A stretch of 63,883 bases of DNA, counting the filler, from Hausera hauseri (taxonomy: Eukaryota), in the NCBI GenBank assembly GCA_046269625.1. It is 11 parts of 11 records of this genome, joined end to end, with 100 filler letters (N's around TTAATTAATTAA, not from the genome) between each part and the next. Parts side by side here need not be neighbours in the genome. Positions count along the whole stretch, not along the records: positions 29,740 to 38,874 come from JBJURY010449912.1; 10 more parts are not named here. One strand, written 5' to 3'. Shown here one piece after another: positions 4,201-51,366 of the stretch (position 1 is the stretch's first letter; each line of letters opens with the position of its first letter). The notes beneath the pieces are model-generated. The model was not told the origin of the DNA. It worked only from the letters and a program-made list of their open reading frames with translations, and made no database searches. Made by a program: the position numbers and the translations under genes.

Positions 4201-4329
4201 CAGGAAAAAGTTTCAGTAGTGGGTTCATCCCACAGTTCGCCACACTCTCAGAACCTCTAAGGCATTTAACCTGAAAAGTGACAAGATTTATGTTTGGACA
4301 GTAGTAAGAAAACAGCCTTTGAACTTTAA

Positions 4330-19240: not shown

Positions 19241-19642
19241 TGTTTAAAAAAGACAAATGTGAACTGAAATTACATATCTTTATATNNNNNNNNNNNNNNN
19301 NNNNNNNNNNNNNNNNNNNNNNNNNNNNNTTAATTAATTAANNNNNNNNNNNNNNNNNNNNNNNNNNNNNNNNNNNNNNNNNNNNTTCCTCGACGATTCC
19401 TTTCAAACTGTTAGGTATCTTGTCTACTTCATTTATTTCGATTGATCTTTTGTTTTGTGATTTGATATGGATCTGCCGGTAGATGGCTTTTGAATTGGGG
19501 GTTATGATAGTCGCATTTTCCTGAAGGAATTCATCGATATCTGCATAAGTTCCGCCATTATACTTACCAATCTGAAATAAAAGAAAATAAGATTATTCTT
19601 AAGACAGATTCTTATTTCAATACGAAATATTTTCACTGTCTG

Positions 19643-19686
19643 ATGATAGAATAACCCGATCTGTAGTTGTCAGGTTATTTTATCGT
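19643..19686 (-). promoter_or_regulatory. Conserved 17-bp stem/10-nt loop hairpin after the polyprotein (also 29758-29801, 40017-40060, 51282-51325)
   Basis: Sense ATGATAAAATAACCTGA-caattacaga-TCAGGTTATTCTGTCAT; present in all four copies with mostly pairing-compatible changes. Confidence 0.8.
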
Positions 19687-19724
19687 ATAAGTCATTTCGG
19701 TACACCACCCTTAACCTTCCATCT

Positions 19725-20858: not shown

Positions 20859-22313
20859 TTATACGTCCTTTTGTCCTTCTTTAACTTGTTGTTCTTCCTT
20901 CGTTTTAGCTTCTCTTGCCTTTTTACTAATTCCATATATATCCGGTAAGCTAGATTCATCGTGCCACCATTGGGCTTTAGTGCTTGGAACGTAAGAGGCA
21001 ATTAATGATAATGCTAAGATTATCTGTACGTAGGATACCGGTCTATTGACTATAGTAGAGGCCTTTGTTTTCTTTTTATCTTGACTTTGTTTTAGACTCT
21101 GATCTTTATATCGTAAATTGTAATATTTATTTGGCCTTATTTCTGTTTTAACAACTCTTTGAATGGAGATTATCTCTTCTTTTCCGTTTTTATTAATATA
21201 TACGGTAGTTGGTGTGGTTCGAACAACTTCATAAGGTCCTCTTCCGGTGCGAGTAAGCTTTAGTGACGTACCTTTCTTTGCTACTGGATAGTGTACGTAA
21301 ACCCAATCTCTCTTTTCTAAATCATGAGGTTTGGCTTTCTTATCGTACTGTTTCTTAAACTGTTCTTGGTATTCGAGTGTTAGCGTTTTTGCTATATCCC
21401 AACACTTCTGTAACCTTGTTTGTAAAACTTCTGCAAAGTTTGGTTCTAAGTCTTCTGGGTTTGTTTGATACGGGGTCATTCCTAAGTCCGTAGGTAATAT
21501 CGCTTCGCGCCCGTACATCATGAAAAATGGTGTAAATCCCGTAGCTGGGTGTGGAGTTGTATTAATAGCAAATTGCGTTCCTTCTAAAAATTCATCCCAA
21601 TCCTTTTGATCCTTTGCAACCACTGTTGATAAGACTCGAATGACTGTTGCGTTCATACGTTCTACCATTCCGTTACATTGGGGATGATACGCGGTCGTAG
21701 TTAATAGTTCGATTTCAAAGATTTTAGTAATCTTATCAAATAATTCACTCGTAAAGTTTCTTCCTCGATCCGTCAAGATTTGATCAGGTGGTCCATATCT
21801 GCAAATAACTTTCCTTACTACTGCATCTGCTAACGTCTCTGCTTTTTGGTCGATTAAAGCTACTAATTCGACGAAGTGCGTTAGTCGGTCTACGCATGTT
21901 AAAATATACTTGTTATTTTTGTGAGTTGTAGGTAATGGTCCTACTATATCCATAGACATGGCCTGCATAGGCCTATCTGGTACATTGATTGGTTTTAATT
22001 CGGCTATATAATTTTTCACTTTCTTTTGTTTCGTGGCACAGACTTCACATGCATCCACCCAATTTTTCACATCGATATAGATGCTAGGCCAGTAATATTT
22101 ATTTAGTATTCTCTCCAATGTCTTTTTCCATGACATGTGTCCGGCTAGATAAGAATCGTGTTCCGCCATTAATACTTCTGTTCGTAGTCCTCTCGGAATG
22201 ACCACAAGTTTCCGTCCCTTTCGTTCGTAATACAAAATACTATCTTGGTTTGATGCATAGTATTTGTGTCCATGTCTTTGTAGATGCTTCTTCAACTGGC
22301 GTCCCTTTGGCAT
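20859..22313 (-). CDS. Polyprotein segment: integrase (HHCC, DDE, GPY/F) running into a hydrophobic signal sequence
   Basis: HDSYLAGH..CEVC, SMDIVGP, TDRGRNF, GMVERMN, RGPYEV, then VSYVQIILALSLIASYVPSTKA; same frame as 22512-25493. Confidence 0.93.
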   Translation of the reverse strand: MPKGRQLKKHLQRHGHKYYASNQDSILYYERKGRKLVVIPRGLRTEVLMAEHDSYLAGHMSWKKTLERILNKYYWPSIYIDVKNWVDACEVCATKQKKVKNYIAELKPINVPDRPMQAMSMDIVGPLPTTHKNNKYILTCVDRLTHFVELVALIDQKAETLADAVVRKVICRYGPPDQILTDRGRNFTSELFDKITKIFEIELLTTTAYHPQCNGMVERMNATVIRVLSTVVAKDQKDWDEFLEGTQFAINTTPHPATGFTPFFMMYGREAILPTDLGMTPYQTNPEDLEPNFAEVLQTRLQKCWDIAKTLTLEYQEQFKKQYDKKAKPHDLEKRDWVYVHYPVAKKGTSLKLTRTGRGPYEVVRTTPTTVYINKNGKEEIISIQRVVKTEIRPNKYYNLRYKDQSLKQSQDKKKTKASTIVNRPVSYVQIILALSLIASYVPSTKAQWWHDESSLPDIYGISKKAREAKTKEEQQVKEGQKDV

Positions 22314-22511
22314 TTTATTTTGTTAGGCAAACTTAAGTATTTGTTGAATAACTTTATCTTTGGCTTGTTCTGAAGATATTTTGATCGTTCTGTCTAATGT
22401 TAGGGTGCGTTGTCGTTCCACCAATTCTTCAAGTTGAGCTTTCTTCATTGTCGTAATAATGCTTGTTTTTGTCTTAAGCCTTGATAAAGCATCTGCATCG
22501 ATATGTTTACT

Positions 22512-25493
22512 TTAGGGCTTATATTGAAATTCGATATTATATCGTGAGATTTCTTCGATCCAGCGATTTAATCTGCATGTTGGGTTAATAGCTCGTCCCT
22601 TCAAGGTCGTGACAGCCTTGTGATCAGTGACCATAATAATTTTCTGTCCATAGACATAAACGTTAAAATATCTTAAGGCTTCTTTTACACCTAATTTTTC
22701 TAGTTCCGTAACTGAATAATTTTTCTCGGCCTTTTTGAGTGATCGTCCGCCATATGCGATCGGATGCTTTAATTCTTCATCCTCTTGTTTTTGGGCTAAC
22801 TCATAGCCAATTCCTTCTTTGCTTGCGTCTGTTTTAATTATAAACGTTAAGTTGAAATCGGGATATCTTAATACTGGTTCGCTTGTTAAAATTTTCTTCA
22901 TTTCATCAAATGCCCTTTGTTTGACATCGGTCCATTTCCATTTGATTCCCTTTTTTAACAATCGATATAATGGTGCATTGATTTTTGAATTGTCCGGCTC
23001 GTAGGTAGCGTAATATCCACATAATCCTAGCCAATGCCTTAATTCTTTCTGATTTTGAGGTTTCATGCAGTCCGATATTTTATTTAATAGGGATTTATCT
23101 GGTTTTGACCCTCCTTCTCCGACTATGTGTCCGAGATAAGATACGGCATTCTGCGCCCATTTGAATTTCTTAGGATTCAGTTTCAATCCTGCCTGTTCTA
23201 ATCGCATAAGGGTATCTTCGATATCCTTTAGATGTTCCTCTTCGGTTTTTGATGCTATCATTACATCGTCCAGGTAGGCAAATGCATGATCAAGTCCCAT
23301 TAACATTTTGTTCATCATCCTGGTGAATATAGCTGGGCCAGTTGTTATACCGAATGGCATGACATTAAATTCGTAAACTCCATCGTGTGTTTTGAACGCT
23401 GTTTTATATCGGTCATCTTCCTCAATTTCTACTTGCCAGTAACCGGATTGTAAGTCCAGTGTGGTGAACCATTTTGCTCCTGATAATCTATCCAGTGCTT
23501 CTTTTACAGACGGTAATGGAAACGAATCTTTCATCATCAGAGTGTTTAAGGCCCTATAATCTATACAAAATCGATGTTTGGTAGTACCTTTCTTTTTAAC
23601 CATCAGTATTGGCGAATACCATGATCGGTAGCTTGGTCGTATTATATCGGCTTTTAACATACGTTCTACTTCTTTAGTAATTTCAGGTCTCAGTGAATGA
23701 GGTGGCGGGTACCATTTAGGCATTTTCTGTTCTTCCAGATCAATTTCTTCATTGGAGCCAGGTTTCTTCCTTAATGGTATCGTTAATCTGAGGGCCTTTG
23801 CCCGGCCTATATCTTCTTCATTTTGGGCAATAATCGATTTGTATTTGCATAATAGTTCATAAAATTGACAATACACTTCTGGAGAAAATTTGGTTTCAAC
23901 ATGAGGTGGGAATTCGGCGTATTTGTACGGTTTTTCTTCGATTGTTATAGCTGACACCTTATAAGTGTGACCCAATGTCGTGTTAGCGTACAACCTTACA
24001 GAGGTTGGTGCGTTATTCACCAACCTAACGGGTACTCGTCCTGTCGTTACCCGTGTCAGAATGTTACTGAGGATAATATTTGGGTTTAGGTCTTCTTGTG
24101 GTTCAAAGTATACCGGTTGATCATCCTCTTCTCGTATTTGAGCATAAATTAACATCTCAGTTCGAGGTGGGATATTTTCGTCTACGGGAATCCATACTTC
24201 TCCCAATTTTCTTTCTTTCACGGTTTTGATCCCTCTTACTGGTCCGAGTTCCATCAACTTTCCGGTTTGTAAGTTTATTGCAATGTTAGGTAGTTGTTTC
24301 AATATATCGTAACCCAATACTACGTCGTCCGTTAGTTGATCCATTATGGCAAATTCATGCTGGAGGGTCTGACCCAATAAGTCAACTATAGGACTCCATT
24401 TAAATTTTGGCTTAGATTCCTGCCCGAAGGCTCCTATACTGCTTGGATCTGCCGAAGACGTTGGTTGTAACTGTTTTCGTAGTATCGGTGGTATTGATTC
24501 TAATTTGATGAAGGACTTCTCCGATCCTGTGTCCACTAAGGCATATACCTCCCAGTCTTCAATGGTAACTTTTGTAAAGGGTCTTCCTTCCACAACTGTC
24601 CCATAACAATTCGATACATCCTTGGGGCGTCTGATTGAAGAAATCTTATGTCCGTTAATCGTTATTTCTGGTGACGAAACAATATTCTCCGTTAGCTGTT
24701 TTAGTTCTCCGTTTGGATATAGATTATTGTTCACTATGCTACTTTCATTGTTTTTAATTAATGGTTCTTGAATTCTTGAGTTTGAAAACGATCTCGTTCC
24801 ATGAGTCTCCCAGATTGTCGATTTGGATTCTATATTACGAGGTATTCTTGACGAGTATATTATTCCATGATCATCTTCCGCTCGCCGTTGGTTAGCAATC
24901 TGCGTTTTCTTTAACACTCCGTACTGCTTTGTTCCTTCATAAGGGTCTTCAAAGTGAAAGGGATTCTGACAAAATGCTGATCTGTATGACATCGTAGAAA
25001 ACTTATCACAATCTTCGTATACCGGAGCTGTTGGCGGCATTATGGGCAATGGTGCTTTAATCACCGAATACATTTTGTGTCTATTTTGTTTAGGGAGGGC
25101 TTCTCCTCCCTTAGGCTCGTCATCATCTGAGTCATCTCTTCTAGTTATTATTTTCTTAGTTTTACGTTTCGATAGGAAGAAGGGTCTTGTTCGCCGCTTG
25201 TAATTGTGGTAGCCAACATGTCGTTCCACGTCGTTTTTCCATCGATTTTCTTCATAGGCTTTAAGCATTTTACCGAAAGGTGTGATAATTGCTCTTAAAA
25301 TTTTGCAAGAAAATCCTGTCAACGTGAATATTTCATATCCATTTATAATTGCTTGGATTACGGCCTTCACTAATTGTACCATAAAATAGATTGCTAAGAA
25401 TCCGGATGCAGCTTGTCCAAAAATCAAAAATCTTCCCCAAATTTTGTAGAGTATTTCCGTAGTTACTCGTTGATAGTGATTTACTCCTAACAA
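22512..25493 (-). CDS. pol: Polyprotein segment: glycoprotein TM/tail, aspartic protease, dUTPase-like spacer, reverse transcriptase, RNase H
   Basis: 993-aa open ORF: WGRFLIFGQAASGFLAIYF (TM), ALVDTGS (DTG 24525-24533), RFCIDYRALN, MPFG, YLDD (23265-23276), TDASKEGIG, TDHK. Confidence 0.95.
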   Translation of the reverse strand: MLGVNHYQRVTTEILYKIWGRFLIFGQAASGFLAIYFMVQLVKAVIQAIINGYEIFTLTGFSCKILRAIITPFGKMLKAYEENRWKNDVERHVGYHNYKRRTRPFFLSKRKTKKIITRRDDSDDDEPKGGEALPKQNRHKMYSVIKAPLPIMPPTAPVYEDCDKFSTMSYRSAFCQNPFHFEDPYEGTKQYGVLKKTQIANQRRAEDDHGIIYSSRIPRNIESKSTIWETHGTRSFSNSRIQEPLIKNNESSIVNNNLYPNGELKQLTENIVSSPEITINGHKISSIRRPKDVSNCYGTVVEGRPFTKVTIEDWEVYALVDTGSEKSFIKLESIPPILRKQLQPTSSADPSSIGAFGQESKPKFKWSPIVDLLGQTLQHEFAIMDQLTDDVVLGYDILKQLPNIAINLQTGKLMELGPVRGIKTVKERKLGEVWIPVDENIPPRTEMLIYAQIREEDDQPVYFEPQEDLNPNIILSNILTRVTTGRVPVRLVNNAPTSVRLYANTTLGHTYKVSAITIEEKPYKYAEFPPHVETKFSPEVYCQFYELLCKYKSIIAQNEEDIGRAKALRLTIPLRKKPGSNEEIDLEEQKMPKWYPPPHSLRPEITKEVERMLKADIIRPSYRSWYSPILMVKKKGTTKHRFCIDYRALNTLMMKDSFPLPSVKEALDRLSGAKWFTTLDLQSGYWQVEIEEDDRYKTAFKTHDGVYEFNVMPFGITTGPAIFTRMMNKMLMGLDHAFAYLDDVMIASKTEEEHLKDIEDTLMRLEQAGLKLNPKKFKWAQNAVSYLGHIVGEGGSKPDKSLLNKISDCMKPQNQKELRHWLGLCGYYATYEPDNSKINAPLYRLLKKGIKWKWTDVKQRAFDEMKKILTSEPVLRYPDFNLTFIIKTDASKEGIGYELAQKQEDEELKHPIAYGGRSLKKAEKNYSVTELEKLGVKEALRYFNVYVYGQKIIMVTDHKAVTTLKGRAINPTCRLNRWIEEISRYNIEFQYKP

Positions 25494-25604
25494 TGATTCC
25501 CATTNNNNNNNNNNNNNNNNNNNNNNNNNNNNNNNNNNNNNNNNNNNNTTAATTAATTAANNNNNNNNNNNNNNNNNNNNNNNNNNNNNNNNNNNNNNNN
25601 NNNN

Positions 25605-27050
25605 TAATTAGACGCTCAAAGTTCTTTATCCAAAAATAATGTTTCTTATCGCCATCATCTAGTAGGAGCAGATACCTATCATCTTCCAAATGAGCATCAC
25701 ATATTTCCAAGGGGTAGAATTTATTATCCTTATCCAATCCAAAGATATTGATGGACATGTTGTTGATGCAGCTGAACTTCTTGATTTCATCTAAGGATGG
25801 AGGGAAGGTGATACACTGAAAGTCGTAGTTGTGTTGAAGATCATTATATAATAAAACACGGTAAGCATGCTTTTGATCCGTTACCAGTTTTTATAGAATT
25901 GCATACATGAAAAACATGTTGCCATTATTATAGACATTAATGCAAGCATTTCTCTGCCGAATCCATTCCGGAAGCTGTATATATGAACTGCCTTGCATGG
26001 GCGAGTATCTGTGTACATATATAAGCAGTCTCTTGATGGTTTCCAGAACCCATCCACTCTTCTTATCCTGGCTCTCATCGTCTTCACGGATCAGCTTCGT
26101 ATGCTCTTAATGCAGCCATTCAGGTATATTTATGTTTTCCAATATGGGCCTATTTTGGTCTTGAAGGCCCTATTTGATTTTTCAGCATCGACATTGACGC
26201 ATGTGGCCTCAAGTTTCATACTAACCTTAAGGGCCTTGAGCTCAGTCATATAGTCCTGTAGGATTCCATCTGTTTCTTCCTTTGCATATTCCAGAAACTC
26301 CTTGATGGTTCTTTGTCCAGTTGCATCAATGACATGTTTGCGGACTTTATCATTTAATGCAGCAGCATCAACTCGTCTCTGTCTTTGGCTTTTTGGCGCA
26401 GCCGCTACGCCTGTTGAGCCTGAGACATCTGATAGGTCTGATGGGCGTTTTAATCCTGAATCTCTATGTATTGCTACAGGCTGTACTACTGCATGGTGTA
26501 TTGCAGGCTGTACTGCTGCATCTGGCTGTACTGTGGACTGCACTGCGGACTGTACTGCGGATTGTACTGCTGATTGTACTGTGAACAGTACTGCCGACTG
26601 TACTGCGGACTGTGCAACTAGCTTATGATCATTAAATATGATTATCTTGGACTTTGATGCGAAGTCAGTCAAATGATTCTTGTGACCTTCATAGAACTGT
26701 ATGTATTCCCCATCACATACAAGCTCACATCCTGGGCAAATATAATAGAGGATTCTATTGAATTTGTGGCCATAATAGCTCCTCATGGTATTGTGTCAAT
26801 TCTCAGGGTATATGTGCAATACACATATGAACTGCAGCTTTGGTTTTTCTTTGACACAAAAGACGTTATTGGCATATTGGTACTCAACATTTGTTTTTTC
26901 GACTTGGCGAAGGAAATCAAGGGCTATTTATGGACATTGTAAAATTCCTCGTACCCTATCCTACACACTACCTCACATGTAGGGCATATATAATACTGAA
27001 CCTTGTTGAACATATGCCCAAAGTATTTCATCATAATACTATGGTAATTT
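25605..27050 (-). pseudogene. N-terminal part of a second-family Polinton pPolB with duplicated CxxC..H zinc-finger-like modules
   Basis: YYICPGC and YYICPTC modules, KALKVSMKLEA..RAFKTK, KKSGW, GSSYIQLPEWI, SINIFGLD..YPL..LLLL..HYFWIKNFERLI. Confidence 0.85.
26490..26620 (-). repeat. 12-bp coding tandem repeat (AVQS)n inside pPolB
   Basis: AQSAVQSAVLFTVQSAVQSAVQSAVQSTVQPDAAVQP in ORF 26130-26786. Confidence 0.85.
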
Positions 27051-29130: not shown

Positions 29131-29859
29131 TTTCAGTGAAATTGACAGTAGCCAAGTGTGAAGCGAAACGCTGAGGTCCAAACAGCAACAATCTCAACCG
29201 GTACAAGAACAAAAACTCCACAATTATCATCCGATTCGTTTCAAATACCAAAACACAAACAAACCATTCCAATCAGCCGAAGTCGTTCAGCTAAAAGAGC
29301 AGACATCGACGTCGATAATCATCAGTTATGATTCGGCTGTCAGCATTTGCAACAACAGTCTTGAACTCGATCCGCCAATTGTCCGATCCGATTTCAGCAA
29401 TAACGAAATTATCAGATCACCGAACAGTAAATTAAACTCAACGACCATTTTTAACTGTACAACTCCATTAATCAATAATGACATATTTCCCCAATGATTG
29501 TCTTTTGACATCATCTTGCTTACTTCCTATGGTTATGATTGCATATTGTTCATGTACGGCTGTGCTACACAAACACACACGCGTTTATACACATACAATG
29601 TTTTATAGGTCTCGTTGAATTGCCTTTGTTTATGTACCANNNNNNNNNNNNNNNNNNNNNNNNNNNNNNNNNNNNNNNNNNNNTTAATTAATTAANNNNN
29701 NNNNNNNNNNNNNNNNNNNNNNNNNNNNNNNNNNNNNNNAAACATTTTCTCTGTCTGATGACAGGATAACCTGATCTGTAATTGTCAGGTTATGCTATCA
29801 TAAAGTCCGTCTCGGTCCCTTTTACCCGTTTATATCCTTTTCGATTTTTACAGCGTTTA

Positions 29860-31110
29860 TTACAATTTTTTTAAATGAGGAAAATCATCGCCATTAATGT
29901 GACAAGAACGAAAATTGACAAACTAAACAGCTGTTATCGCTAAATTGTTTGGCTCAATGGAACCCTTTGTGATAAACGTATTTTGAGTACTAAGATCTTT
30001 ATGCTGCATTACCTCAATTTTGTTGTGAAGAGTTCGTACTGTAAAAGTCTTAGGGTTTTTACCTTTTGCGGCAATTCGGATTATATAATTATGCTGTGGT
30101 CGTAATGATTTCATTCGGTTTCCTGACTATTCTTTTTTAGGATTATAATTTGATTGGTGTGCAGGGTGCGACATTCAATTTTGACGTCTTAATTTAATGT
30201 TTCTTCAGCGTAAGATAGAATTTTATTACTTTTTGCCAAAATCTTAACCGGTATGCTCCCTAGTTCTTTTTCGGGCATTTCATCTGAACTGACGATCGCA
30301 GTAGTGAGAGTGGTACTTGGAACAGTGGACGGTTTTCTCATAGTAATTTGAAACGGAAGCTTCCATATTCCGATTTTTGGGCGGTATCCTCGTAAATAAA
30401 TACTCGGTGCTTTAGGGTAAGTGTTGTACAGATCGAACTGTAATTGTTAGTTGTGTCCTAACTGTAATATACAGCACACAGTAAGCCGTCGTCGTGCGAT
30501 ATAACAATACGCCGGAATAGGAACCAAGGGGTTCAGTGGTATACATCGGACGGAAATTTGTCTGTCTCCTGGCAGTTTTATTTTGGTCTCAATTCAAATA
30601 CATAGGTTCTTTAAGTCTCTGGAAATCCTAATAATGTTATAATCTAAGAGCCTTTTAAATGGGTCAGTATTATGGATTATGGCATCCGTCTTGACTCGAT
30701 TCGTGTCATTTCGTTGAGGCATCCTTATCAGAAGTTCAGTAATTATATAGGCTTTAGCTCCGGGCTGATTATAATAGAAAATTTACAATCTGTATCGGTA
30801 TGTTCGTCCGAAATCCAATATACAACATTCCCTATGAGTTCCATACGGAGAATCGCATGTTTTCGTCGTGGATACAGTTACAAATATTATTTGAAATTTT
30901 ATACGACTCTGAATACGTTCACTTGCCTCAAACCATCACACGGTTTGCTCCAATCCATATCGTATACTCTATGTGACTGTAAGTTCTGGATATCCTTTTG
31001 TTATGCCGCATATTGTAGTTTTTCGGTTAGGGTTATTGACCTTGTCTTTGGTATATACCAAATGATTAACGATAGAGCGAGAACTAATTATACATACGAT
31101 ATTGGTCAAG
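29860..31110 (-). pseudogene. Signal + FN3-like ectodomain + TM, copy B
   Basis: PISYVxLVLALSLI signal, Cys pairs, LRPQHNYIIRIAA FN3 signature, hydrophobic end. Confidence 0.7.
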
Positions 31111-31149
31111 TCACTATCGACGACGTTTTCTTTTCTTTATTTGTATAGT

Positions 31150-34100
31150 CCAATTTTGCTTTGCTCGAACGCAAATTATAGCGTTTGTTTGATCTTATTT
31201 TCGTTTTAACTACTCTCTGGATTGATATGACCTCCTCCTTGCCATTTTTGTTGATATAAACTGTGTTTGGTGTGGTTTTGGTAACTTCGTAAGGTCCTCT
31301 GCCTGTTCTGGTAAGCTTAAGAGATGTGCCTTTCTTTGCCACTGAGTAATGTACGTAAACCCAATTTACTGATTCAAAGTCGTATGGTTTAGACTTCTTG
31401 CCATATTGCCCTTTATATTGATCCTCGTATTTGCTGGATAATTCCAGGGCTATTTCCAAACACTTGTGTAATCTCAATTGTAATACTTCAACAAAGTTTT
31501 GCTCTAAGTTTTCCGTTCTGGTTGTATATGGAATCAGTCCTAAATCTGTAGGTAATCCTCAATTTAAAAAACGGGGTAAATCCTGTTGCAGGATGTGGGG
31601 TAGTATTAATGGCAAACTGCGTACCTTCCAAAAATCGTCCCAATCCTTCTGGTCTTTTGCGACTACTGTCAATAAAATTCGTATAGCTGTCGCGTTTATT
31701 CTTTCAACCAGTCCGTTACATTGAAAATGATAAGCTGTGGTTGTTAGTCGCTTGATTTCAAAAATTTTGGTAATTTTTTCGAACAGTTCGCTCGTAAAGT
31801 TTCTCCTCGGTCTGTCAAAATTTGTTCCTGCGGCCAATATCTGCAAATAATTTTCCGGACTACTACTTCTGCCAGGGTCTCAGCCCTTTGGTCTATTAAT
31901 GCTATAAGCTCGACGAAATAAGTCAATCGGTCTATACATGTCAAAATATATTTATTGCTTTATGAGTCGTAGGTATCGGTCCTACAATATCCATAGACAT
32001 TGCTTACATTGGTCTGTCAAGCACGTTGATGGATTTAAGCTTGGTGATGTAGTTTTTTCACTTTTTTCTGTTTGGTTGCGTATACGTCACAAGCATTTAC
32101 CCAATTTCTCACGTCTATGTAAATGCTCGGCCAGTAATATTTATTTAATATTCTTTTCAATGACTTCTTCCACGACATGTGTCCGGCTAGATAGAGTCGT
32201 GTTCGGCCATTAGAACTTCCGCACGTAATCCTTTTGGTATGACGACTAATTTTCGCCCCTTTTGTTCGTAGTACAACACATTTTCTTGGTTCGAATCTCC
32301 TGCGACGCAGTATTTGTGACCATGTCGTCGTAGGTGTTTCCGTAACTAATGACCCTTTAATGTTTTGTTAGTATCAACGAACTCGATAATTTGTTATATA
32401 ACCTTGTTTTTTTCTGTTCGACAGTAATCTTCAATGCCTTATCCAGTGTGAGAGTCCGTTATCTTTCTACTAAGTCTTCGACGTGGGCTTTTCTCATTAC
32501 CGCAACCGCGCTTGTTTTAGTTTTAAGACTCGATAATGCATCGGCATCGACATGTTTATTTCCGGGCTTGTACTGGAATTAGATATTATAACATGAGATC
32601 TCCTCGATCAATCTGTTGAGTCTACAGGTTGGATTATTTGCGCTACCCTTCAAGGTCGTGACCGCCTTGTGATCAGTGACGATTACAATTTTCTGTACAT
32701 AAATATACACATTAAAATGTCTCATGGCGTCCTTCACCGCTAGCGTTTCCAACTCCGTTACAGTATAGTTCTTCTCGGCTTTCCTTAGAGAGCGCCCTCC
32801 ATATGCTATCGGGTGTTCTAACGCCTCGTCTTCTCGTTTCTGAGCTAGTTCATATCCGATGCCTTTCTTACTGGCATCCGTTTTGATTATGAACGGTAGG
32901 TTAAAGTCGGGATATCTTAAAACGGGTTCACTAGTTAGAATCTTCTACATTTTATCGAAAGCTTTCTGTTTGGCATCGGTCCATTTCCATTTGATCCCTT
33001 TTTTAAGCAAGCGGTACAAGGATGCGTTTATCTTTGAATTGTCTGGCACATAGGTAGTAATACCCACATAACCCCAACCAGTGTCTTAGTTCCTTTTGAT
33101 TCTGGGGTTTCATGCAGTCCGATATTTTATTTAATAATGATTTATCCGGCTTTGATCCTCCTCCTTCGACTATGTGTCCAATCTTATGAGTGTACCGTCA
33201 ATATCCTTTAAATGACCTTTGTCCGTTTTTGAAGCAATCATGACGTTATCTAAATAAGCGAACGCGTGTTCTAGTCCAATTAGCATCTTGTTCATCATGC
33301 GGATAAAGATGGCTGGTCCGGTAGTTATTCCAAATGCATAACATTAAATTCGTATATACCGTCGTGTGTCTTAAATGCAGTTTTATAACAGTCTTCTGCC
33401 TCTATCTCTACTTGCTAATATCCGGATTGTAAATCAAGTGTGGTGAACCATTTAGTTCCAGAAAATCTATCCAGAGCTTCCTTTACCCATGGTAACGGAA
33501 AGGAGTCCTTCATCATAAGTGTATTTAATGCTCGATAGTCGATACAAAATCGGTGCTTAGTGGTACCTTTCTTCATAACCATAAGGATAGGTAAATACTA
33601 AGATCTATAGCTTTGTCTGATTATGTCGGCCTTTAACATTCGTTCAACCTCCTCGGTTATCTCTGGCCTTAACGAGTGTGGATGGGGGGGTACCATTTCG
33701 GTATCTTCTGATCCTCTAAATCTATTTCATCGTTGGACCCAGGCTTTTTCTTAAGTGGGATCGTGAGTCTTAAGGTTTTAGCTGAGCCAATATCTTCTTT
33801 ATCTTTCTCAATGACTGAGCTATAACGACAAAGTAATTCGTAATCGGCAGTATGATTCTGGGGAAAATTTAGTTTCAACGTGGGGTGGAAACTCGGTACA
33901 TTTATAAGGTTTCTTTTCGATGGTGACTGATGATACTCTATACGTGTGTCCCAAAGTGGTATTGGCATATAGTTTGATCGGAGTGGGTGCATTATTCGCT
34001 ATCTTAATCGGTACGCACCCTCTTAATACTCTCGTTAAAACATTACTGAGTACGATGTTTGGATTAAGCGATTCCTTCGACTCAAAATACATTTAGGATC

Positions 34101-34570
34101 GTCATCTTGACGTATTTTAGCATATATTAATATTTCCGTTCTGGATGGTATGTTTTCATCCACGGGAATCCACACGTCTCGGAATTTTCTATCTTTAGTG
34201 GTTGCAACTCCTTTTATTGGGCCAAGTTCTGTCAATTTCCCTGCGTTGAAATCTATTGCTATGTTGGGTAGTTGTCTCAATAGACCGCACCCCAATACTA
34301 CATCATCCGTTAATTGTTCCATTATTGAAAATTCATAATGAAAAGATTGTCCCATTATAGGAATTTCTGGTCTCCACCGGAATTTGCTTTTAGACGATTG
34401 ACCGAAGGCTCCGACACTTCCTGGGTCTGTCGTGGGACGTGGATGTAATTGTTTCCGTAGAAATTGCGGTATTAAATCATACTTTATCAGTGCTATTTCG
34501 GATCCTGTATTTATTAGTGCGTAAACTTCCCAATCTTGAAAGTGAATTTTTGCGAACGGTCTACCTTAGA
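31150..34570 (-). pseudogene. pol: PR-RT-RNase H-IN of copy B, many stops and frameshifts
   Basis: ALINTGS, RFCIDYRALN, YLDN, TDASK, CIDRLT, QCNGLVER, RGPYEV; colinear with copy A. Confidence 0.9.
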
Positions 34571-35249
34571 TTACCGTGCCGTAATAACGTGGTGCTATTT
34601 GGGGGTGTCGTATCGTAGACGCCTTGTCACCGTTGACGGTAACTTTAATGGTTCCAATTGGCTGATCGATTAATTGTCTTAACTCTCCAATTAAGTATAG
34701 TTTGTTATTCATACCATTCGCTTTTTCCATTTCCTGTTTTCTAACTGGCGACTGGATTTCTTGGCTTCTGAGATTGTGTGTTTCAGGGCTTCCAGTAAAT
34801 GTTGACTGCCTTTCGTTTGGTGTAGGTATTCTAGGCGAATAAATAATACCGTGATCGGCGACTGCCGATCGACAATGTAGGGCAGACGTTCTTTCCGTTT
34901 CGTGGGTCTTACGCAATATCCCGTAGTGTTTTGTTCCTTTGTAAGGATCCTCTAGACTAAACGGCTTCCAATAGATCCCTGTCTGGCACGAAATCGTAGA
35001 TTGTTTCTCACAGTCTTCATATATAGGTGCCGTTGGCGGCAGTATTGGTAATGGTAATTTCATAACAGAGTAGTTTTTATGCATGTTCGACTTGGATATA
35101 ACGTTTCCTCTCTTAGGCTCGTCATCGTCAGAGTTATTTCTTCGTGTCTTATTATTTATGAAGTTGTGCCTGTAGTCGAATATGCGTCTTTTACGTTTTC
35201 GATTATGGTAGCAAACATGTCGTTCCACATCCGCTTTCCATCTACTCTC

Positions 35250-37076
35250 TTCATAAGCCTTTAAGAATTTACCGAGAGGTGTTATAATAGCCGTCAGAAT
35301 CTTGTACGAGAATTCTGTCAAAGTGAATATCTCGGATCCATTTATAATCGCTTGAATTATTGCTTTGACCAGCTGAATCAAGAAATAAATTGCTAGGAAT
35401 CCTGAAGCGGCTTGTTTGAACATCAGGAATCTTCCCCAAATTTTATGCAATCTTTCCGTATTTACTTTTTGGTTGTAGTTGACACCAAGCAATGATTCCC
35501 ATTTCGCTTGATAACGTGCGTCCTCTAGTATTGTATGCATCACTCTGTTTAATTCATGTGTGCGCTGACGGAGGAAAGCGAGGAATTGTTTGAACGTCTC
35601 TACTTCTTTCGGTCGGTAAATCCCTTTGCGGCGGTATCTTGAAATTTATTATCGGTTATTCCTTTTATTAAATTTGTTCCCGTTAATTTGATCGAAAACG
35701 TAATTATGCCGCCGTTTGGTAAACTTACCCAATCGGTTTTGCTACGTCTGAACATTGGTTCACCTAGGCTGGTCTTGCAGTCGCTCAGAATTGTCGGCTG
35801 AGTAGAGTTTGCCAACAGTACTCTAGTAATTGGTGTTACTAACCTTGGTACGTCATGGTATATTACTGGAAGTTCCTGTATACACCTCTTCTCTTTCACA
35901 TTAATAGGTACATCTTTCTCTTCACATTCATAGATCAGTAGGACTTCTCCGGTTACCCGTCCGAAAACGCCTCATTTTACTGGAATTATTGGTGATGCTA
36001 ATTCGGGGTTAGCATATATTAAAGCCAGTTTAGTCCGCATGACTTCCAAGTTCAATTTGCAGTCATATGTTATCATTGGGTGATATAACTCGGCTATTCC
36101 GGCTTGTCCTTTATAGTAGTCTTGAGCTTAAACGTCCTGGCGTTTATCTCCGTCTCAGCTACAAAGGATGCTTCATAGTTGGTGACGTACATTATGATAT
36201 CACATCTTGTGAGTACATCTTTCTTAACAAATTTCAATCCATATGCATCGGAAATCAGTATAATAGATGTGGACTGTTCGGCTACATCTTCTCGCGTTTT
36301 AGAGTTAGTTTTCTTGCTACCTATGTATCGCTTCCATGTCGTCTCATTAAACTTAAGTTATTTAATTCTGAGAAAATTGCAATCGGTCTTAGCTGGGTGT
36401 TTCCAAATTCCCACGGAGCTTCTAAAGGAGCAAGTACCATCCTGGATGTGGCACTTCTGGTTTTCTATGTAAAGTTTAGTAACGCTATGGAACATTACCT
36501 TTTGTAGGCGCATTTCGGTTTCGTAAAAATCTACCAGTACGATGTTCGACTTTAGCCCTTTTTCAGTATCGTATTCTGCGCCATTACAATGTCCGATGTG
36601 TATATCTAGTCTTCCAGCTGCCACTTTATATACTCTTATTATCTTTCTTGATCCATTTCCAATTCCATGCCATCCCATTTTAATCTTCCAGTCTCTCTAG
36701 CTTGCTTACAATGCTGACGTTCTAAGTTCATCGGAATTGGTGGGGTTGTTGGCTTGATTATCGATAAATGCCCATGCACCAATCCACAATGGAAAATACT
36801 GCGAGATCGTCGCAACATACATTCTTTTCCGTCTAATGTAACTAGTTCGCGTTGTTGGTACAGTACGTAATTTTTCTCTTTTATTTCTAGTTCATGTGGT
36901 CTCGCATCTTCACACATTTCTAACTCTATTAATGAGTATTTTTGGCCAAGTTTAAATTTGTCGCAGTCGTACACTGTAACTGCACCCATTTGTCTTATTA
37001 GCATTATTAAGGTTAAGAAGTTAATTAACCAGTTTCGCTCGTTTCCTCTATTATTTCCGGTTACTTTTCGTAACAA
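35250..37076 (-). pseudogene. Class III viral fusion glycoprotein (chuvirus glycoprotein / herpes gB-like)
   Basis: Signal WLINFLTLIMLIRQMGA, then VYDC..YSL..C, C..FHCG..H, C..GHCNG, GRVTGEVLLIYEC..RCIQELPV..VTPITRVL..C, and WGRF..ASGFLAIYFLIQLVKAIIQAIING TM. Confidence 0.82.
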
Positions 37077-38874
37077 GTCTTAAAATCTATTATTGCCAAG
37101 GAAGGGCTTATTTTGACGTTCTTCTTCTCTTTCAAATAATTTGGACCAGCTTACTTCTTGGGGTAGTTTCCTGGCAGCCTTCTTTACCAAGCTAGTGGTC
37201 TTATTAAATTCGCTTTCTCGGACCGGATTGGTTTTAACGGCCAAATATAGCAACACTTTTTTTAATTCCTTCACGGTGTTCTCTGCTATAATTTTTTCGA
37301 TTATCGTTTCATTGCTTAAGGTGCTTCTGGATAATTTACATCGAAAATTTTTTATAGCTTTGGCTGCATTAAATATAGCCTTCTCTCTCGTCTAGCATAT
37401 TGCCGTCGAGACTAGAGTGGTTTACTATACGCATCAATTTTTTCATGAGTTCTGTCAGTTCTTCGTCATCTGCACTGAAGGTCAGTATGGATATTTATCT
37501 CATTTCTCTGATTATATCTCCGTTATGGTCGATTTCTTCTCGTGTCTTCCGAGGCCTGCCGACAGGACGCTTCTGTTAGGTTAAAGTCAGTGCGGTATCA
37601 CTGGTTGGCACTAAATTCTTATCATATTGTTCCTTGTCCGCGTCTGTCTGCAAGTATTCAAAGTACATTTCTGCGTCTCGAACTCCTACAATTCGTCCTA
37701 TCCACTGTTCAGTCTTCGCCTTTCTGGTGGCCTCTTCTTTTGTTTCGTCGGTGTGAATTGTTACTACTATCCGGTTTGCTTCGTCTGAAATAATTCCAAC
37801 TTCTATTAGTAGTTCCATTTGGTCTAATATTCTTCTTTTAAAATAAAGTCTACAATTTGGCTCGTTTGTATGGCCATTACTTTTTAACCACAGTGCTACA
37901 TCCTTCACAAGGGAACGTTTAGTAAACTCGTGCTCCTTCTCGTCACCCAGTCAAACGTTATTCTTATTTTAATCGTTTCTTCGGGCCTTGTCTTTAAGAT
38001 TTTAGCGTATTCTTTGATTAAAATTTTTGGTGCAGTACTATAAATGGTACCTTCGCTGGCCAATTTAGTTAAGGTGGGAACTAACCACCTTAATTGATTT
38101 TCAGTAAGGTTTACACTGATTGACTTAATTAGATCCCTTTCAGTTTGTGCCGAGTCCAGAAGCATCTTCACACTAAATCTCTGATTTGGTGGACACGTCT
38201 CCGTTTCGTACAAGTGCACGGGAGTTTTCGAGTTTTCGGCGACTATCGCATTCATATACGCGTCCCTTTTGTTTTCGTTTTCGGATATTCCGAAATCAAT
38301 CTCGGGAGTTTCTAACGGCCGGACTAAGTTCGCTTCCTTCATTGATTCTCTTAGTTTCCGTAGTTTCTTTTGCATTACAACCATTTGTGTGGTTCGGAAA
38401 CAACGTCCGTTTCCGGAGTTTGGCGTAATACTGTTAGCAGTTGACATAATTCTTTGGCTGATATAAATCCTTGTTCTTGATAGTTAGTTAGCTTAGAAGC
38501 TACGTCGCTTTGCCATCTTTGCACAAATTGTGACTTGTCAGCCTTTTCCGCTTCTGTAAAAGCATACTTAGTTTTATAGACCTCGAGTTTTTTAGTTACT
38601 TTGTCTAATCTTACCGTTTTTTGTTGGGTTTTAATGCAAGTTTCTTCAACTTGTCGTATCTGTGGCAACAATTGTCTTATTTTTTCGTTATTAATTTCTG
38701 CCATTTCCACTATCAGCAGTGCTAATTCATACATCTCATTAATAATTTTTGAGTCTGGGTCTATCTCATCAAGCAATCTTTTTACAAACTTGGTCTATTC
38801 AAAATAAAGATGGTGGTCGTTCCTTATTTTAGTCAGTTCGGTCCGATACCTTTGATCTGTTCCGACCATTCTTT
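37077..38874 (-). pseudogene. Unknown N-terminal polyprotein region upstream of the glycoprotein (gag position)
   Basis: Chain of same-strand ORFs 38375-38776, 37905-38447, 37576-37908 and 37080-37274; the last is in frame with the glycoprotein across one TAA; no CCHC seen. Confidence 0.55.
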
Positions 38875-38973: not shown

Positions 38974-39945
38974 NGTTTCTATTTCTCTTACTCCGGCTAT
39001 ATATGTTATCGGTATGGCCAATTTCCTCATTATCCTCTCTATTTGATACCCCACTAAGACGTATCCATGGAGGCATTGCGTTACTTCTTGTTGTACTAGC
39101 TTAAAATCCTTTCCATGATTCAGATGTTCTCTCTTAATTCCAGTAATTTTTGCATGCGTTCTAAACACTTTTTGTCTTGGATTGATGGTTTTTGAATAGA
39201 CTTCAGTCCCACTTTCTTCTCGGACGGATATCTCGATTGGAATATAATTCCCTTCTTCTCCTTCCCCATAGTTTATTGCGATCATCCTGAGATTTCTCTC
39301 GTCAGCTACCAATCTATATGAATATAGGTGTGTGCCCTGTTCTTCTTTTGTAGGCCTTTGTCTAAATTCTAAAGGTGGCAATGTAGCGGGTATTGTTTCT
39401 TCTTCGGTTGTTTCGATCGTTCTTTTCACTGGTAAGGCAGCTACACGAAATTCCAATTTGTGATTTCTGAGGCTCCTACTGTTGAATACAAAGGTATTAA
39501 ACCGGCTCTGTCTTCCTTGGAATGAATCCCATTTTTGATCCTTCAGTCGATAGTAAATTTCCCCATCTGTGAAATGCACATGGATTTCTGTTCTTTATCT
39601 GATAGGTACTGAGCGATTGGTTTAAATGGGTATGCCCTAGCATCTTTGTCTTCCCTCCATGCATACAAATATACTGCTCTAGCCTCCTCGGTTGTCCCTT
39701 TTAGCCCATTCGGTATTTCGCCAACTTCCCCATATTGCACGAAGCTTTTCCCTTGTAATTCTGTGTTTATCTGCCTATAGACGGCCTTTGAATTCGGGAT
39801 CCGCACTATTACATAGTTCTGTAGGAATTCGTCGATACTAAGTCGACTGGTCATTTCCTCCGTGTCCATCCTACGTCGGCTCGGAACTTCCTTGGCGTCG
39901 ACGCTAATTCGGCTTGGTTCCATCTGAGTCTGAGTACTTACTAAT
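38974..39945 (-). pseudogene. Accessory ORF of copy C: unknown N-terminal domain plus REX4/ISG20-like DEDDh exonuclease fold
   Basis: ISVREESGTEVYSKTINP..THAKITGIKREHLNHGKDFKLVQQEVTQCLHGYVLVGY; one frameshift near 39580. Confidence 0.7.
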
Positions 39946-42900
39946 CTGAACAAAAGAACATAAAGGTTAATCTTGAAACAAAGGATGGTTTTAAACCAAA
40001 ACCAATTCTTTGTTTGATGACAGAATAAACTGATCTGTAATTGTCAGCTTATTTTATCATATGGGTTTACAGGGTTCTCCGACTCCTTAGTTCCCATTCT
40101 GAATTTTTACGACGCTTAAAATAACAGTTTTTGGTAATTAGTCGAAAAATCGCAATTAGTATAATGAGAACAAACGTTGACAGTACTGCAATAGATATAA
40201 TTGGTAAAGCAGTTAATCCTAGTGGTGCTTGAGTAGTGATTGATGTTGTGGTTTTGTCGCCTATATCTTCGCATGTATGCTGTTTTGCATGCACCTCAGC
40301 CAAAGTATGCAGCGTAATTGTTTAGGTCGCTTTGTTCTCTGCATACACTTGTATTATGTATTCGGATTGTGGTTTCAGTAAGTTGCACTCGGTTTGATAA
40401 GTATTTTTAAAGTGTTACCATTTGCTTATTATATGTGGTCCGACAACTTATATATATCGTAATTTTGTTTTTCCTCTACGAAGAACACGATCTTATACCG
40501 TTTGGCCGAAAATTTGATAGATATAATTTCCAACTCTATTTTAGGTGCGTCGTTTGTCGTAAGAGCTCGACCAGCTTTATTAGTTGTAATTTCCATTGAA
40601 ATTCTCCAAATCTTATTTTCCGGATAGTAAGTTCGTAATTGTATGCTCGTCTTATTTAGTCGTACCTTGTATAAATCAAATCTTATTTTAAAATCTTGGT
40701 TCGCCGGCAGTTTGCAGCAAGCATGTTGCACACCTGCGCGAATAGAGCAATACTCTATTTCCGGGGTCGGTCCAGTTGTTTCTTCAAATCTGATACTAAT
40801 TTCTCGATTATCGGTTAATTCTATCCGGGTATCTACTTGGACGCATTTTCTTGCCTTGTTAATCACAATTCTTCGAATATTCTTATCTAATAGTTTTATA
40901 TCTGGATCAGTATATCGCAACATCTCGTTCAGTCCTATTTCATGATTTTTATCTCGTGTAGGGATAACTAGTTGAAATGGCGGCTTTATTTCGTAAACTT
41001 TTAATAAACTTGGTACGTACAGGTGATAAGTGAGGTTGTAAGTACGTCCAAAATATACGTCGCAACATCTGGTATGTTCTCCGTGCTCGAAGTCACAGTT
41101 TTTGGCATCTTCCGTCATTACATGGTCTAAGACGATTTGTAATCTTCCAAAATCGTGGTGCAGTTTCTGCGCCCTGAACCCAACGCACGTGGAGTTTGGC
41201 GAATAGAATTGAATTGACACTGACTGTAATAGCCTTTGGATTTCTTCGGCTGATGGTTTTCTTTTTGCAGCAAATCCGCCGTGCCACCATTTTGCTTGTG
41301 TTCTCGGAATGTAAGAAGCAATAAATGATAGTGCTAAAACTATCTGAACATATGAGATCGGTCTGGCAATTATTGAGGAAGTCTTTATTTCTCGTGAGCG
41401 TAAGTTGTAACGTTTATTGGGCCGTATCTCTGTCTTAACAACTCTGCACTGATACGACTTCTTCCTTTCCATTTTTGTTAATATATACTGTAGTTGACGT
41501 AACCATTGTAACTTCGTATGGTCCTCTGCCTGTACGAGTCAATTTTAGTAAGGTGCCTTTTTTAACGACCGGGTAATGCACATAAACCCAATTTCCTTGC
41601 TCTATATCATGCGGTTTCGCTTTCTTATCGTATTGCTTCTTAAACTGCTCTTGATATTCTTGAGATAATTCCTTGGCGATTTCCCAACACTTTTGCAATT
41701 GCATTTGTAACACCTCTGCGAAATTTTGTTCTAAATCTTCGGGATTAACTGTGTATGGCGTCATTCCTAAGTCCGTAGGCAACGCGGCTTCACGTCCATA
41801 CATCATAAAAAATGGCGTAAATCCTGTTGTTGGATGTTGTGTGGTATTAATCGCAAATTGAGTTCCTTCTAAAAATTCGTCCCAATCCTTTTGGTCCTTA
41901 GCCACTACTGTTGACAGTATACGTATGACGGTAGCATTCATCCGTTCGACCATTCCGTTACATTGAGGATGATATGCAGTAGTCGTTAATCGTTAGATTT
42001 CGAATATCTTAGTGATTTTCTCAAATAATTCACTGGTAAAATTTCTTCCCCGATCTGTGAGTATCTGTTCTGGAGGCCCGTATCGACAAATAGTCCTTCT
42101 TACCACAGCTTCTGCTAAGGTCTCGGCCTTTTGATCGATCAATGCTATCAACTCGACAAAATGAGTTATGCGATCGATACATGTCAAGATATACTTATTG
42201 TTCTTGTGAGTCGTAGGAAGATGTCATACGATATCCATCGACATGGCTTGCATAGGCCTGTCGGGTACATCGATTGGTTTTAATTCGGCCATGTAATTTT
42301 TCGCCTTCTTTTGTTTAGTTGCACATACTTCACACTCGTTTATCCAATTTCTTACATCGATATAGATACTAGGCCAAAAGTATTTGTTCATTATTCTTTC
42401 TAATGTTTTCTTCCAAGACCTATGTCCGGCTAAGTATTAATCATGTTCTGACATCAATACTTCAATTCGTAAACTTTTTGGGATAAATATCAATTTTCTT
42501 CCTTTCCGTTCGTAATATAAGATGTTTCTTTCGTCCCTATCATTTAAGGCACAATATTTGTGTCCATTCCTGTGTAAATGTTTCTTTAACTGTCGTCCTT
42601 TTGGTATAATATCTTTTTTTGCAAATTCTATAATCTGCTGGATAACTTTATCCTTTCTCTCTTCTGCTGAAATCTTGATTGCCCTATCTATTGTTAATGC
42701 GCGTTGGCGGTCTATTATTTCCTCAAGTTGACTTTTCTTCATTACAGTAATTGCGCTTGTTTTAGTCTTTAATCTTGATAGCGCATCTGCGTCTACATGT
42801 TTGTTCCCTGGCTTATATTGAAATTCAATGTTGTACCTTGATATTTCCTCGATCCATCTGTTGAGTCTGCATGTCGGGTTATTTGCTCGGCCTTATAAAG

Positions 42901-43609
42901 TTGTGACGGCCTTCTGACAATTATAATCTTCTGCCCATATACATAAACTTTAAAATGTCGAAGTGCTTCTTTTACAGCTAGAGTTTCTAATTCTGTAACA
43001 GAATAATTTTTCTCAGCCTACTTCAAGGAACGTCCTCCGTAAGCGATCGGATGTTTTAATTCTTCATTTCCTCTGTGCTAATTCGTACCCGATGCCTTCT
43101 TTACTGGCGTCGGTTTTAATTATGAAGGGTAAGTTAAAGTCTGAGTACCGCAAAACCGGTTCACTCGTCAATATCTTCTTCATTTCGTCGAAAGCTTTTT
43201 GTTCGATGTCTGTCAATTTCCATTTGATCCCTTTTTTAGGTAAGCGATATAAAGGTGCATTAATCGTTGAATTGTATGGTACGTAGGTTGCCTAATATCC
43301 GCAGAGTCCTAACCAATGTCTCAACTCTTTCTGATTTTGTGGTTCCCTACAATCTGATATTTTGTTTAATAGTGATTTATCCGGTTTCGATCCTCCTTCT
43401 CCAACTATGTGACCTAAGTAGGATACTGAATTTTGAGCCCATTTGCATTTCTTCGGATTTACCTTCAATCCGGATTGTTCTAATCTCATCAGTGTATGTT
43501 CAATATCCTTTAAGTGTTCTTCCTCCGTTTTCGATGCTATCATCACATCATCTAAATATGCAAAGGCATGATCCAGTCCCATTAACATTTTGTTCATCAT
43601 TCTTGTAAA
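38974..43609 (-). mobile_element. Envelope-bearing Ty3/Gypsy-like retroelement, copy C (RT to accessory ORF)
   Basis: YLDD RT, RH, IN, signal-FN3-TM (about 40067-41400), hairpin and accessory ORF. Confidence 0.92.
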
Positions 43610-48416: not shown

Positions 48417-48739
48417 NNNNNNNNNNNNNNNNNNNNNNNNNNNNNNNNNNNNNNNNNNNNTTAATTAATTAANNNNNNNNNNNNNNNNNNNNNNNNNNNN
48501 NNNNNNNNNNNNNNNNAATTCGGCTGATATTTACAATGCTGATTAAATTTGCGAATTATCTAATTATGTCCAACAACTAAATTCGAAATACCTAATTATG
48601 TACAATCACTAATTTTCATAGTCAGCTTGTCAATTTAGTCATTCTAGAACAATTCTCCTTCCTGAACGGCATCCTCGGATGTGCCTATTGAGTCAGGAGA
48701 GGTGCCGCTACGACGGGTACTTCGTAATAATTCCATTCG

Positions 48740-49087
48740 TTATCTTATTCTGGGTCCAGAACTGGTACTAGGCTGTTCTCTGGGATTCGGCTCCAATTCA
48801 TAACTATGGTAGGGTTTAATTCTAACTATTCGGGTATAGCTACCGTTCGAATAGTACTTTAGATCAGCAGCTTCGGCTCGACAAACTGGACATGTGGTCT
48901 TCCCATTATCCAGCGTCCATTTCTCTAAACAGTCTCTACAATACTTATGTCGACAATCGGAGTTATTTAGCACCACGTATCCTTGTTTCAGGTTCGCCTC
49001 GCACACCGGGCATTCGTCTTCTTCTCTTGACAACTTCTCGTCGTTTAGATCTACTCTCAACAGAATTTCAATAGGCTCTACTATCAA
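48740..49087 (-). CDS. C3HC4 RING finger, probably the C-terminus of the accessory ORF
   Basis: CPVC-x13-CRHKYCRDC-x11-CPVC. Confidence 0.88.
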   Translation of the reverse strand: MIVEPIEILLRVDLNDEKLSREEDECPVCEANLKQGYVVLNNSDCRHKYCRDCLEKWTLDNGKTTCPVCRAEAADLKYYSNGSYTRIVRIKPYHSYELEPNPREQPSTSSGPRIR

Positions 49088-49628
49088 CCCTTCTTCATCT
49101 TGGTATAAATAAGCGTATATTCTTTTTTGTTTCGGGTTTATTGAACTTTTCTTAGGGTCGCATCCAACAGTTATTAGGGTCTAATCGCTGATAGTATTTC
49201 GATCTAAATGGGGAACTTCACCAGTCGATCGGTATTTCTGATATTGTTTCTTTAAGAGCAGCTTAACCGATTTATGCACAGGAACTAATATTTTACCACT
49301 TCGTTTGGATTGAAATATTGGTGCAATATACTTTCCGATTTTGGGATTTTCCCAGACATACGTGTTTTCGTAAACTTGTCTAGAAGGCAATAGTTTGACA
49401 AAAATATCGCTTATTTAATCTTCTGTTTGCTATAGTACTTGGTGGCTACTAACATCTAGGGATAATCTACGGTTGTAGCATAATGAATATTTTCTGTGGA
49501 TGTCTTCTTCCGCAAGACATTTATTTCGGTAATTTGTTCTTCTTGTTTTCTTTTTGCTTTTACTGCGGGTTTCTCTATGCGGGGCTGTATCTTTGGCCTT
49601 GTGGGTTTTGCGGTTAATCGTTCCGGTT

Positions 49629-51209: not shown

Positions 51210-51366
51210 TCTGAATAAAAGAACATAAAGGTTAATCTTAAAACAAAGGATGGTTTTAAACCAAAACCAATTCTTCGTTTGATGACAGAATAACCTGATC
51301 TGTAATTGTCAGGTTATTTTATCATATGGGTCTACAGGGTTCTCCATTTCCCTTAGTTCCCATTCT

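Follow-up and report, generated by a model that had tools for sequence, protein, structure and literature searches.

We consider it likely that the stretch of Hausera hauseri DNA analysed here (63,883 nucleotides, called the window below) and joined from 11 contigs, holds decayed copies of a Ty3/gypsy element whose gB-type envelope leads in frame into protease, reverse transcriptase, RNase H and integrase (PR-RT-RH-IN), the whole forming one polyprotein that would cross the ER membrane twice. Four partial copies of this one element lie on the same (-) strand of the window and are 71-86% alike by self-comparison and tblastn (copies A-D; Table 1). Each copy has its own contig, so that the 10-11 kb spacing seen in the window leaves their tandem order uncertain. 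All four are broken, and the window contains no complete copy. Its self-comparison revealed no LTR pair, the copies ending at gaps, and we identified no PBS or TSD within it. In X1, the one element-bearing sequencing run (possibly the source sample and not independent; no RNA run bearing the element was listed), 12,906 contig pieces covered 30 of 30 bins of copy B, and transitions made up 842 of the 1104 changed places, which fits a high-copy, decaying family.

The window also contains sequences of other kinds. A pair of 1.65-kb inverted repeats (2304-3950 and 15053-16719) shares 79% identity, a separate RT/RNase H-like element occupies 4273-4746 (+), and a CCHC ORF lies at 5872-6474. At 61704-62294 (-) we noticed a Gar1/Naf1-like host gene fragment (Pfam E 0.0016). 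ORF pieces at 25549-26795 (-), including a VQSA tandem repeat, are unrelated to the LTR element and give the impression of possibly being a DNA-transposon or Polinton-like remnant.

Table 1. Positions of the element's copies and of their features in the window.
Feature	Position	Strand	Remarks
Copy A	19386-25504	-	own contig
Copy A post-integrase ectodomain, broken	19728-20858	-	membrane-proximal FN3-like domain; TM 19829-19773
Copy A integrase, in frame into second signal-peptide-like segment	20862-22322	-	segment 21038-20982
Copy A open frame	22515-25502	-	protease ~24587-24291; RT 23600-23121; RNase H 22934-22539
Copy B	29740-38874	-	own contig
Copy B post-integrase module, broken	29780-31100	-	
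Copy B RT, RNase H, integrase, heavily broken	31100-34037	-	
Copy B protease ORF (ALINTGS)	34038-34565	-	in the linker's frame, after stop 34566-34568
Copy B cytoplasmic tail and ~200-aa linker to protease	34569-35342	-	linker fast-evolving
Copy B membrane-proximal segment and TM (WGRF...GFLAIYF...)	35343-35438	-	
Copy B gB/chuvirus-type ectodomain	35439-36971	-	three frame changes and stops; fold via relative P0011
Copy B predicted internal signal peptide and YDC start of gB	36963-37028	-	no Met upstream of hydrophobic core within ORF
Copy B envelope pieces matching PF24664	36642-37079, 35603-35971, 34569-35645	-	Pfam matches
Copy B in-frame stop between gag-side ORF and gB signal segment	37080-37082	-	not common to other copies in X1
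Copy B gag-side polyprotein region, four broken pieces	37083-38794	-	5' end lost in N gap at 38875
Copy C	38975-43609	-	own contig
Copy C accessory ORF, DEDD-exonuclease-like, broken	38980-40043	-	RNase_T E 0.008
Copy C integrase end, signal segment, beta-sandwich ectodomain, FN3-like domain, TM-like segment	40050-41538	-	broken near end
Copy D	48517-53644	-	own contig
Copy D accessory ORF pieces: exonuclease-like part and C3HC4 RING	48746-51308	-	RING E 5e-10
Copy D integrase C-terminus, open into signal segment and three-domain ectodomain	51521-53017	-	TM-like segment behind stop

The envelope and its junction with Pol

Upon inspection of the minus strand, we found all of the motifs that a first-pass annotation of this DNA had listed for a fusogen (signal, YDC, GEV..YEC..CIQELPV and WGRF..GFLAIYF). 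In copy B, the hydrophobic segment LINFLTLIMLIRQMGA is followed by VTVYDC (together 37028-36963), GEVLLIYEC...CIQELPV lies in the ORF at 35603-35971, and WGRF...GFLAIYF in the ORF at 34569-35645. The Pfam family Monjiviricetes_fusion (PF24664) matches three of the five copy-B envelope pieces scanned, over profile positions 5-128 (E 5e-12), 368-428 (E 4.5e-6) and 476-604 (E 2e-15), as well as the start of the copy-A ORF; the copy-B pieces at 36097-36357 and 36361-36696 gave no Pfam match. In a tblastn search, the matches to the intact relative P0001 cover the whole of 37160-35262 in colinear order (summed E 8e-66); along the way, the copy-B envelope changes frame three times (near 36670, 36120 and 35620) and contains in-frame stops.

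The evidence on the fold comes from an intact relative, P0011, in place of the window's own broken gB. P0011 is 29-37% identical to the window pieces, and its model, built from 33 aligned sequences, has a pLDDT of 74.7, a pTM of 0.49 and a gB-like fold, with a long central helix and beta-rich domains. All 35 PDB matches listed by Foldseek are herpes gB (HSV-1 gB, E 2.4e-13), and the best match in a viral structure library is the glycoprotein of Tacheng tick virus 4 (E 1.2e-37), followed by further chu-like proteins. VIA-align places four gB chains at the top (Z 8.0-10.3, rmsd 7-9), with HSV gB at Z 10.3 and an rmsd of 8.8 over 363 residues. TM-scores against gB are low (about 0.3), indicating that the match is one of domains, not of one rigid conformation. 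The structural comparison with gB and chuvirus G, made on the relative, thus agrees with Pfam and tblastn, and the earlier call of a chuvirus/gB-type class III fusogen is borne out: sequence and model confirm the window envelope as a fusogen of this class, with a predicted function.

This fusogen had also been placed upstream of, and fused to, the protease. In copy A, a single open frame runs from the gB stem and TM through a linker of ~200 aa into the ALVDTGS protease, the YLDD reverse transcriptase and RNase H, and Pfam recovers PF24664, RVP, RVT_1 and RT_RNaseH in series with no stop between them. The reading frame of copy A therefore bears out the claimed fusion and the run from the TM into ALVDTGS and YLDD, and it extends the run to RNase H. 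Copy B, as also claimed, is open from the TM to just before the protease, where an in-frame stop intervenes (34566-34568). Between copies A and B, the stem, TM and tail are 79% identical at the amino acid level (dN/dS 0.07), the protease is 62% identical (dN/dS 0.15) and the linker is 49% identical, with pN (0.32) below pS (0.81); dS is saturated in several pairs, whose ratios stand as pN/pS only. The lower pN suggests that the linker is probably translated, under loose constraint.

The order PR-RT-RH-IN with an H2C2 integrase, which we found in the window pieces, is that of Ty3/gypsy elements (Metaviridae), and Pfam detected no BEL/Pao-type domains among 21 window pieces. Judged by its sequence and by an envelope upstream of Pol, the element is a Ty3/gypsy-type LTR retroelement and not a BEL/Pao one.

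Upstream of the copy-B envelope, the gag-side ORF and the gB signal segment share a frame and are parted by the stop at 37080-37082. In X1, the entire depth over this codon (24 contigs) differs from the window within it, and one contig spans it without a gap, so that this stop is a lesion of copy B alone. The first Met of the copy-B envelope ORF falls late in the hydrophobic core of the signal, and we predict that the gB signal is most likely internal to the polyprotein. Neither Pfam nor a gag profile built from four relatives detected a capsid or CCHC/zinc knuckle in 37083-38794; the gag profile matched nothing anywhere in the window, and the gag-side piece had no usable match in the ESM Atlas. 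The Gag of copy B probably fell into the N gap at 38875. Since the window offers no capsid or CCHC for this element, its fusion to Gag rests on reading-frame continuity and on the relatives, of which P0001, P0002, P0008 and P0020 have Gag capsid/CCHC upstream.

A probable membrane protein behind the integrase

A signal-like segment, FN3-like domains and a hydrophobic anchor stand behind the integrase in all four window copies and in five of the six relatives with a whole integrase (P0001, P0007, P0012, P0042 and L001). P0015 has a signal segment after its integrase, but a different domain. The integrase frame of copies A and D continues into the hydrophobic segment ISYVQI.LALSLIASY, which copy C also has; a Cys-containing ectodomain follows, with a strong TM in copy A.

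When 1225 peptides were ranked with a profile built from those five relatives (whose own scores are high by construction), the top four places went to the matching window pieces, in the order A, C, D and B. The first of them reaches 26.3 bits, whereas 20 shuffles gave no score above 13.2 and a reversed set none above 12.4; the other three window FN3 matches (11-14 bits) lie within or just above the shuffle range. With a nine-row alignment profile of the membrane-proximal domain, 45 of 47 PDB matches are, as we take it from their names, FN3 proteins (best, tenascin-R, E 1e-4), and the domain has the L.P.T.Y E-F motif. Pfam fn3 matches it weakly, in two of nine members (best E 0.034). A weak model of the copy-D ectodomain (pLDDT 43.7) shows two beta-sandwiches with mixed Ig/FN3 matches; its two N-terminal modules (pLDDT 50-75) reach a VIA Z of 5-6 (at most 6.0), and its FN3 rows in Foldseek (E about 1e-3) rank below cupin rows. 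Alignment of the whole post-integrase ectodomain between window and relatives by hhalign was not significant (probability 0.7%), none of 5980 candidates among shorter proteins matched the post-integrase region of P0001, and part of the ectodomain drew only matches under 0.8 from the ESM Atlas. Between copies D and C, the ectodomain has a dN/dS of 0.13. The kept position and the purifying selection speak for use of the module, not for its location. Taken together, these sequence comparisons make an FN3-type membrane protein the likely product of the region behind the integrase.

In L001, an additional in-frame signal-FN3-TM cassette (4748-5350) lies between protease-like repeats and the main protease and would give the polyprotein a third membrane loop. 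A complex prediction for the gB and post-integrase ectodomains of L001, run without alignments, scored 0.00 and speaks neither for nor against a complex. L001 also has a DEDD exonuclease ORF downstream, as does the window; the window ORF has a DEDD-like fold with no obvious first acidic motif, and the L001 version keeps LDAEF. DEDDy accessory ORFs have been described in rotifer elements (PMC5408684).

Relatives and the origin of the gene order

A search with the N-terminal piece of gB found 36 proteins among 1.84 billion. Of 13 matches scanned, 7 have a protease behind gB and 4 have RT-RH-IN as well. P0001 (4057 aa) encodes, in a single ORF, a CCHC Gag, a ubiquitin-like domain, gB, ankyrins, PR, RT, RH, IN, a signal, an ectodomain and a TM, and the order of gB before Pol is found in six intact relatives (P0001, P0007, P0012, P0020, P0042 and L001). 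A metagenome scan with P0001 gave one locus from six pattern matches, and a viral contig collection scanned with copy A gave no match.

Several of these relatives have features of their own. Directly before the gB signal, six of them carry a Bcl-2-like domain (BH1/BH2-like, GGW; P0001 1042-1180, P0008, P0009, P0011 1-81, P0028 and L001 ~850-1260), and P0045 gives a weaker match. The 60 PDB matches listed of 109 for this domain are all of the Bcl-2 family (best E 2e-4). The gB signal might also serve the Bcl-2-like domain as its membrane anchor. Protease-like (DTG) domains occur in tandem, two to six per polyprotein, in P0002, P0042, P0009, P0016 and P0007, where they lie between gB and RT and behind the integrase. 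P0012 (HBK71150.1), a gB-PR-RT-RH-IN-FN3-TM polyprotein, stands in NCBI under a Flavobacteriaceae MAG label and is likely mis-binned eukaryotic DNA.

Could the junction of gB and pol be an artefact, or a novelty of this lineage? The region is rich in repeats and gaps and each copy fills its own contig, as an assembly chimera or a nested insertion would lead one to expect. Yet the junction lies inside the contigs of two copies that are 72% alike (19386-25504 and 29740-38874), copy A reads through it in an open frame, and intact relatives keep the same order. These observations rule out a chimera or nested insertion, to which we assign a negligible probability, in line with the expectation of the first-pass annotation.

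The same annotation had proposed that the lineage captured a chuviral glycoprotein independently and placed it between gag and pro. The fold of P0011 is indeed closest to chuviral G, the Bcl-2-like domain of the six relatives went undetected in the window (best E 9.3, on 37083-37391), and published GAG-ENV-POL elements are not monophyletic in their Pol tree (PMC13524379). The window RT, moreover, is 41-48% identical to seven relatives and sits on a long branch of an unrooted, poorly resolved tree of these seven that has no outgroup, so that RT alone does not prove shared descent. The envelope tells otherwise. The best matches of the gB piece are borne by retroelements (P0007, E 7e-25, versus E 7e-11 for P0038, a stand-alone glycoprotein of 653 aa), and in a gB tree that omits 9 of 39 blast rows with short alignments, the window piece falls among retroelement gBs, on an open fork (81/84) of a poorly resolved group. 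The FN3 module and the DEDD ORF are common to relatives with the same order. With its nearest gB relatives being retroelement polyproteins of the same order, an order already in print, independent capture is improbable; rather, the order of env before pol was probably inherited within an old Burro-like lineage and not captured afresh.

Membrane topology and comparison with known systems

The arrangement of the hydrophobic segments suggests how such a polyprotein might be threaded, with signal cleavage, topology and function all being predictions from hydropathy. Gag would stay in the cytosol. The internal signal peptide would then open translocation, with signal peptidase freeing the N-terminus of gB near YDC, and the gB TM would act as a stop-transfer sequence, so that Pol would be synthesized on the cytosolic side while still attached to the gB tail through the ~200-aa linker. 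After the integrase, the second signal peptide would reopen translocation for an FN3-like ectodomain that is anchored by a TM of its own. Synthesis at a single membrane site would yield Gag, gB, Pol and the FN3 protein in a ratio of 1:1:1:1, and Pol would be released later by the element's protease. Such a release implies that the tether of Pol to the membrane through the gB tail, which topology suggests, is probably transient and an assembly intermediate.

Pol might instead remain permanently membrane-bound, held by the gB tail and the post-integrase signal, and work on membranes rather than in a released core. A hydrophobic segment does lie on either side of Pol in both the window and its relatives. 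But an integrase has to get into the nucleus, and the proteases of retroelements excise themselves from the precursor. Copy A keeps an intact ALVDTGS protease, and a linker of such length and variability would be apt as a cleavage zone, all of which makes a permanent attachment very unlikely and favors the transient tether. As for the FN3 protein, we regard the particle as its probable site, where it would assist attachment or act as a decoy; between a particle attachment factor and host-cell cargo, the balance is about even. Cargo captured from a host and acting on the producing cell, by adhesion, as a signalling decoy or as a superinfection block, falls a little short of an even chance in our estimate. 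Cargo of host origin (BCL2, BIR, ankyrin and RING; PMC6431247) is abundant in Burro-like elements, and the module varies, in its number of domains, in the extra copy before the main protease of L001 and in the different domain of P0015. Against cargo stand the same position in nearly all relatives with a whole integrase and in every window copy, and the purifying selection.

A broader reading, which we hold tentatively and regard as rather unlikely, would make Burro-like gag-env-pol elements two-glycoprotein retroviruses built from one twice-threaded polyprotein, one glycoprotein, the gB fusogen, preceding Pol and the other, an FN3 attachment protein, following the integrase. If true, the FN3 protein would supply the partner that herpesvirus gB fusogens need and that seems to be missing from the published gB errantiviruses. 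The entry mechanism of gB-carrying errantiviruses is stated to be unknown, and herpes gB requires gD/gH/gL (PMC13524379). A co-translated FN3-like membrane protein offers a concrete candidate for a gB partner and makes the question of entry testable. From the pair of internal signals, one would further expect an LTR element to be processed in the manner of flaviviruses or alphaviruses and to yield Gag, Env and Pol in equal amounts.

The closest published design is that of the planarian Burro/GYPSM1, in which env lies in frame between gag and pol, called the first such case, and matches mononegaviral fusion glycoproteins; as described, its cargo includes BCL2, BIR, ubiquitin-like, ankyrin and RING domains (PMC6431247). 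Like Burro/GYPSM1, the window element joins env to pol in one frame, as parts of a single polyprotein (in copy A, with continuity on the gag side in other copies), and has RING-type accessory cargo; the Bcl-2-like, ubiquitin-like and ankyrin domains of the relatives found here match those listed for Burro. The window element differs in that a ~200-aa linker joins gB to PR, with neither ankyrin (none in copy A by Pfam) nor extra proteases, in that no Bcl-2-like domain is detectable and in its divergent RT. The available description of Burro/GYPSM1 mentions neither a post-integrase FN3 membrane protein nor a DEDD ORF. Burro elements exceed 30 kb and have long LTRs, for which the window has no complete copy to compare. 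The window element is Burro-like in design, and we do not file it as Burro.

Anakin, a BEL/Pao element, likewise carries a chuvirus-type glycoprotein in an LTR element (PMC7642597); its backbone and an env after the integrase set it apart from the window element, whose scanned pieces lack BEL/Pao domains. No clear capture of chuviral glycoproteins by gypsy elements had previously been found in one survey (PMC10084718). Errantiviruses of the GAG-ENV-POL type with a gB-type envelope occur in Nematoda, Bryozoa and Platyhelminthes, with nine flatworm rows in supplement 1, and resemble the window element in their Ty3/gypsy Pol, in an env upstream of pol and in an ectodomain flanked by two hydrophobic segments; on visual inspection, the Y..YQ-EC-CG pattern of the window and its relatives recurs in the Smed_errantivirus rows (PMC13524379). 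The published copies are intact and have LTRs, whereas those of the window are broken. Four window motifs are absent from the sequences of the supplement, which places the window family outside those aligned there, and the main text of that paper leaves fibronectin, polyprotein and Burro unmentioned. It also cites the nematode NERVs for an Env before pol (PMC13524379).

The window element shares this placement of Env. The NERVs described by Sacco and colleagues in 2022 reportedly have one continuous gag-env-pro-pol ORF and are said to be restricted to nematodes and to carry other accessory ORFs. A post-integrase FN3 module in such elements was not found in print within the texts covered; Grohme 2018, Sacco 2022, Repbase and figures lay outside that scope and may annotate it. 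Thus the order of gB before the protease is a published architecture, and the probable membrane protein behind the integrase is an addition to it.
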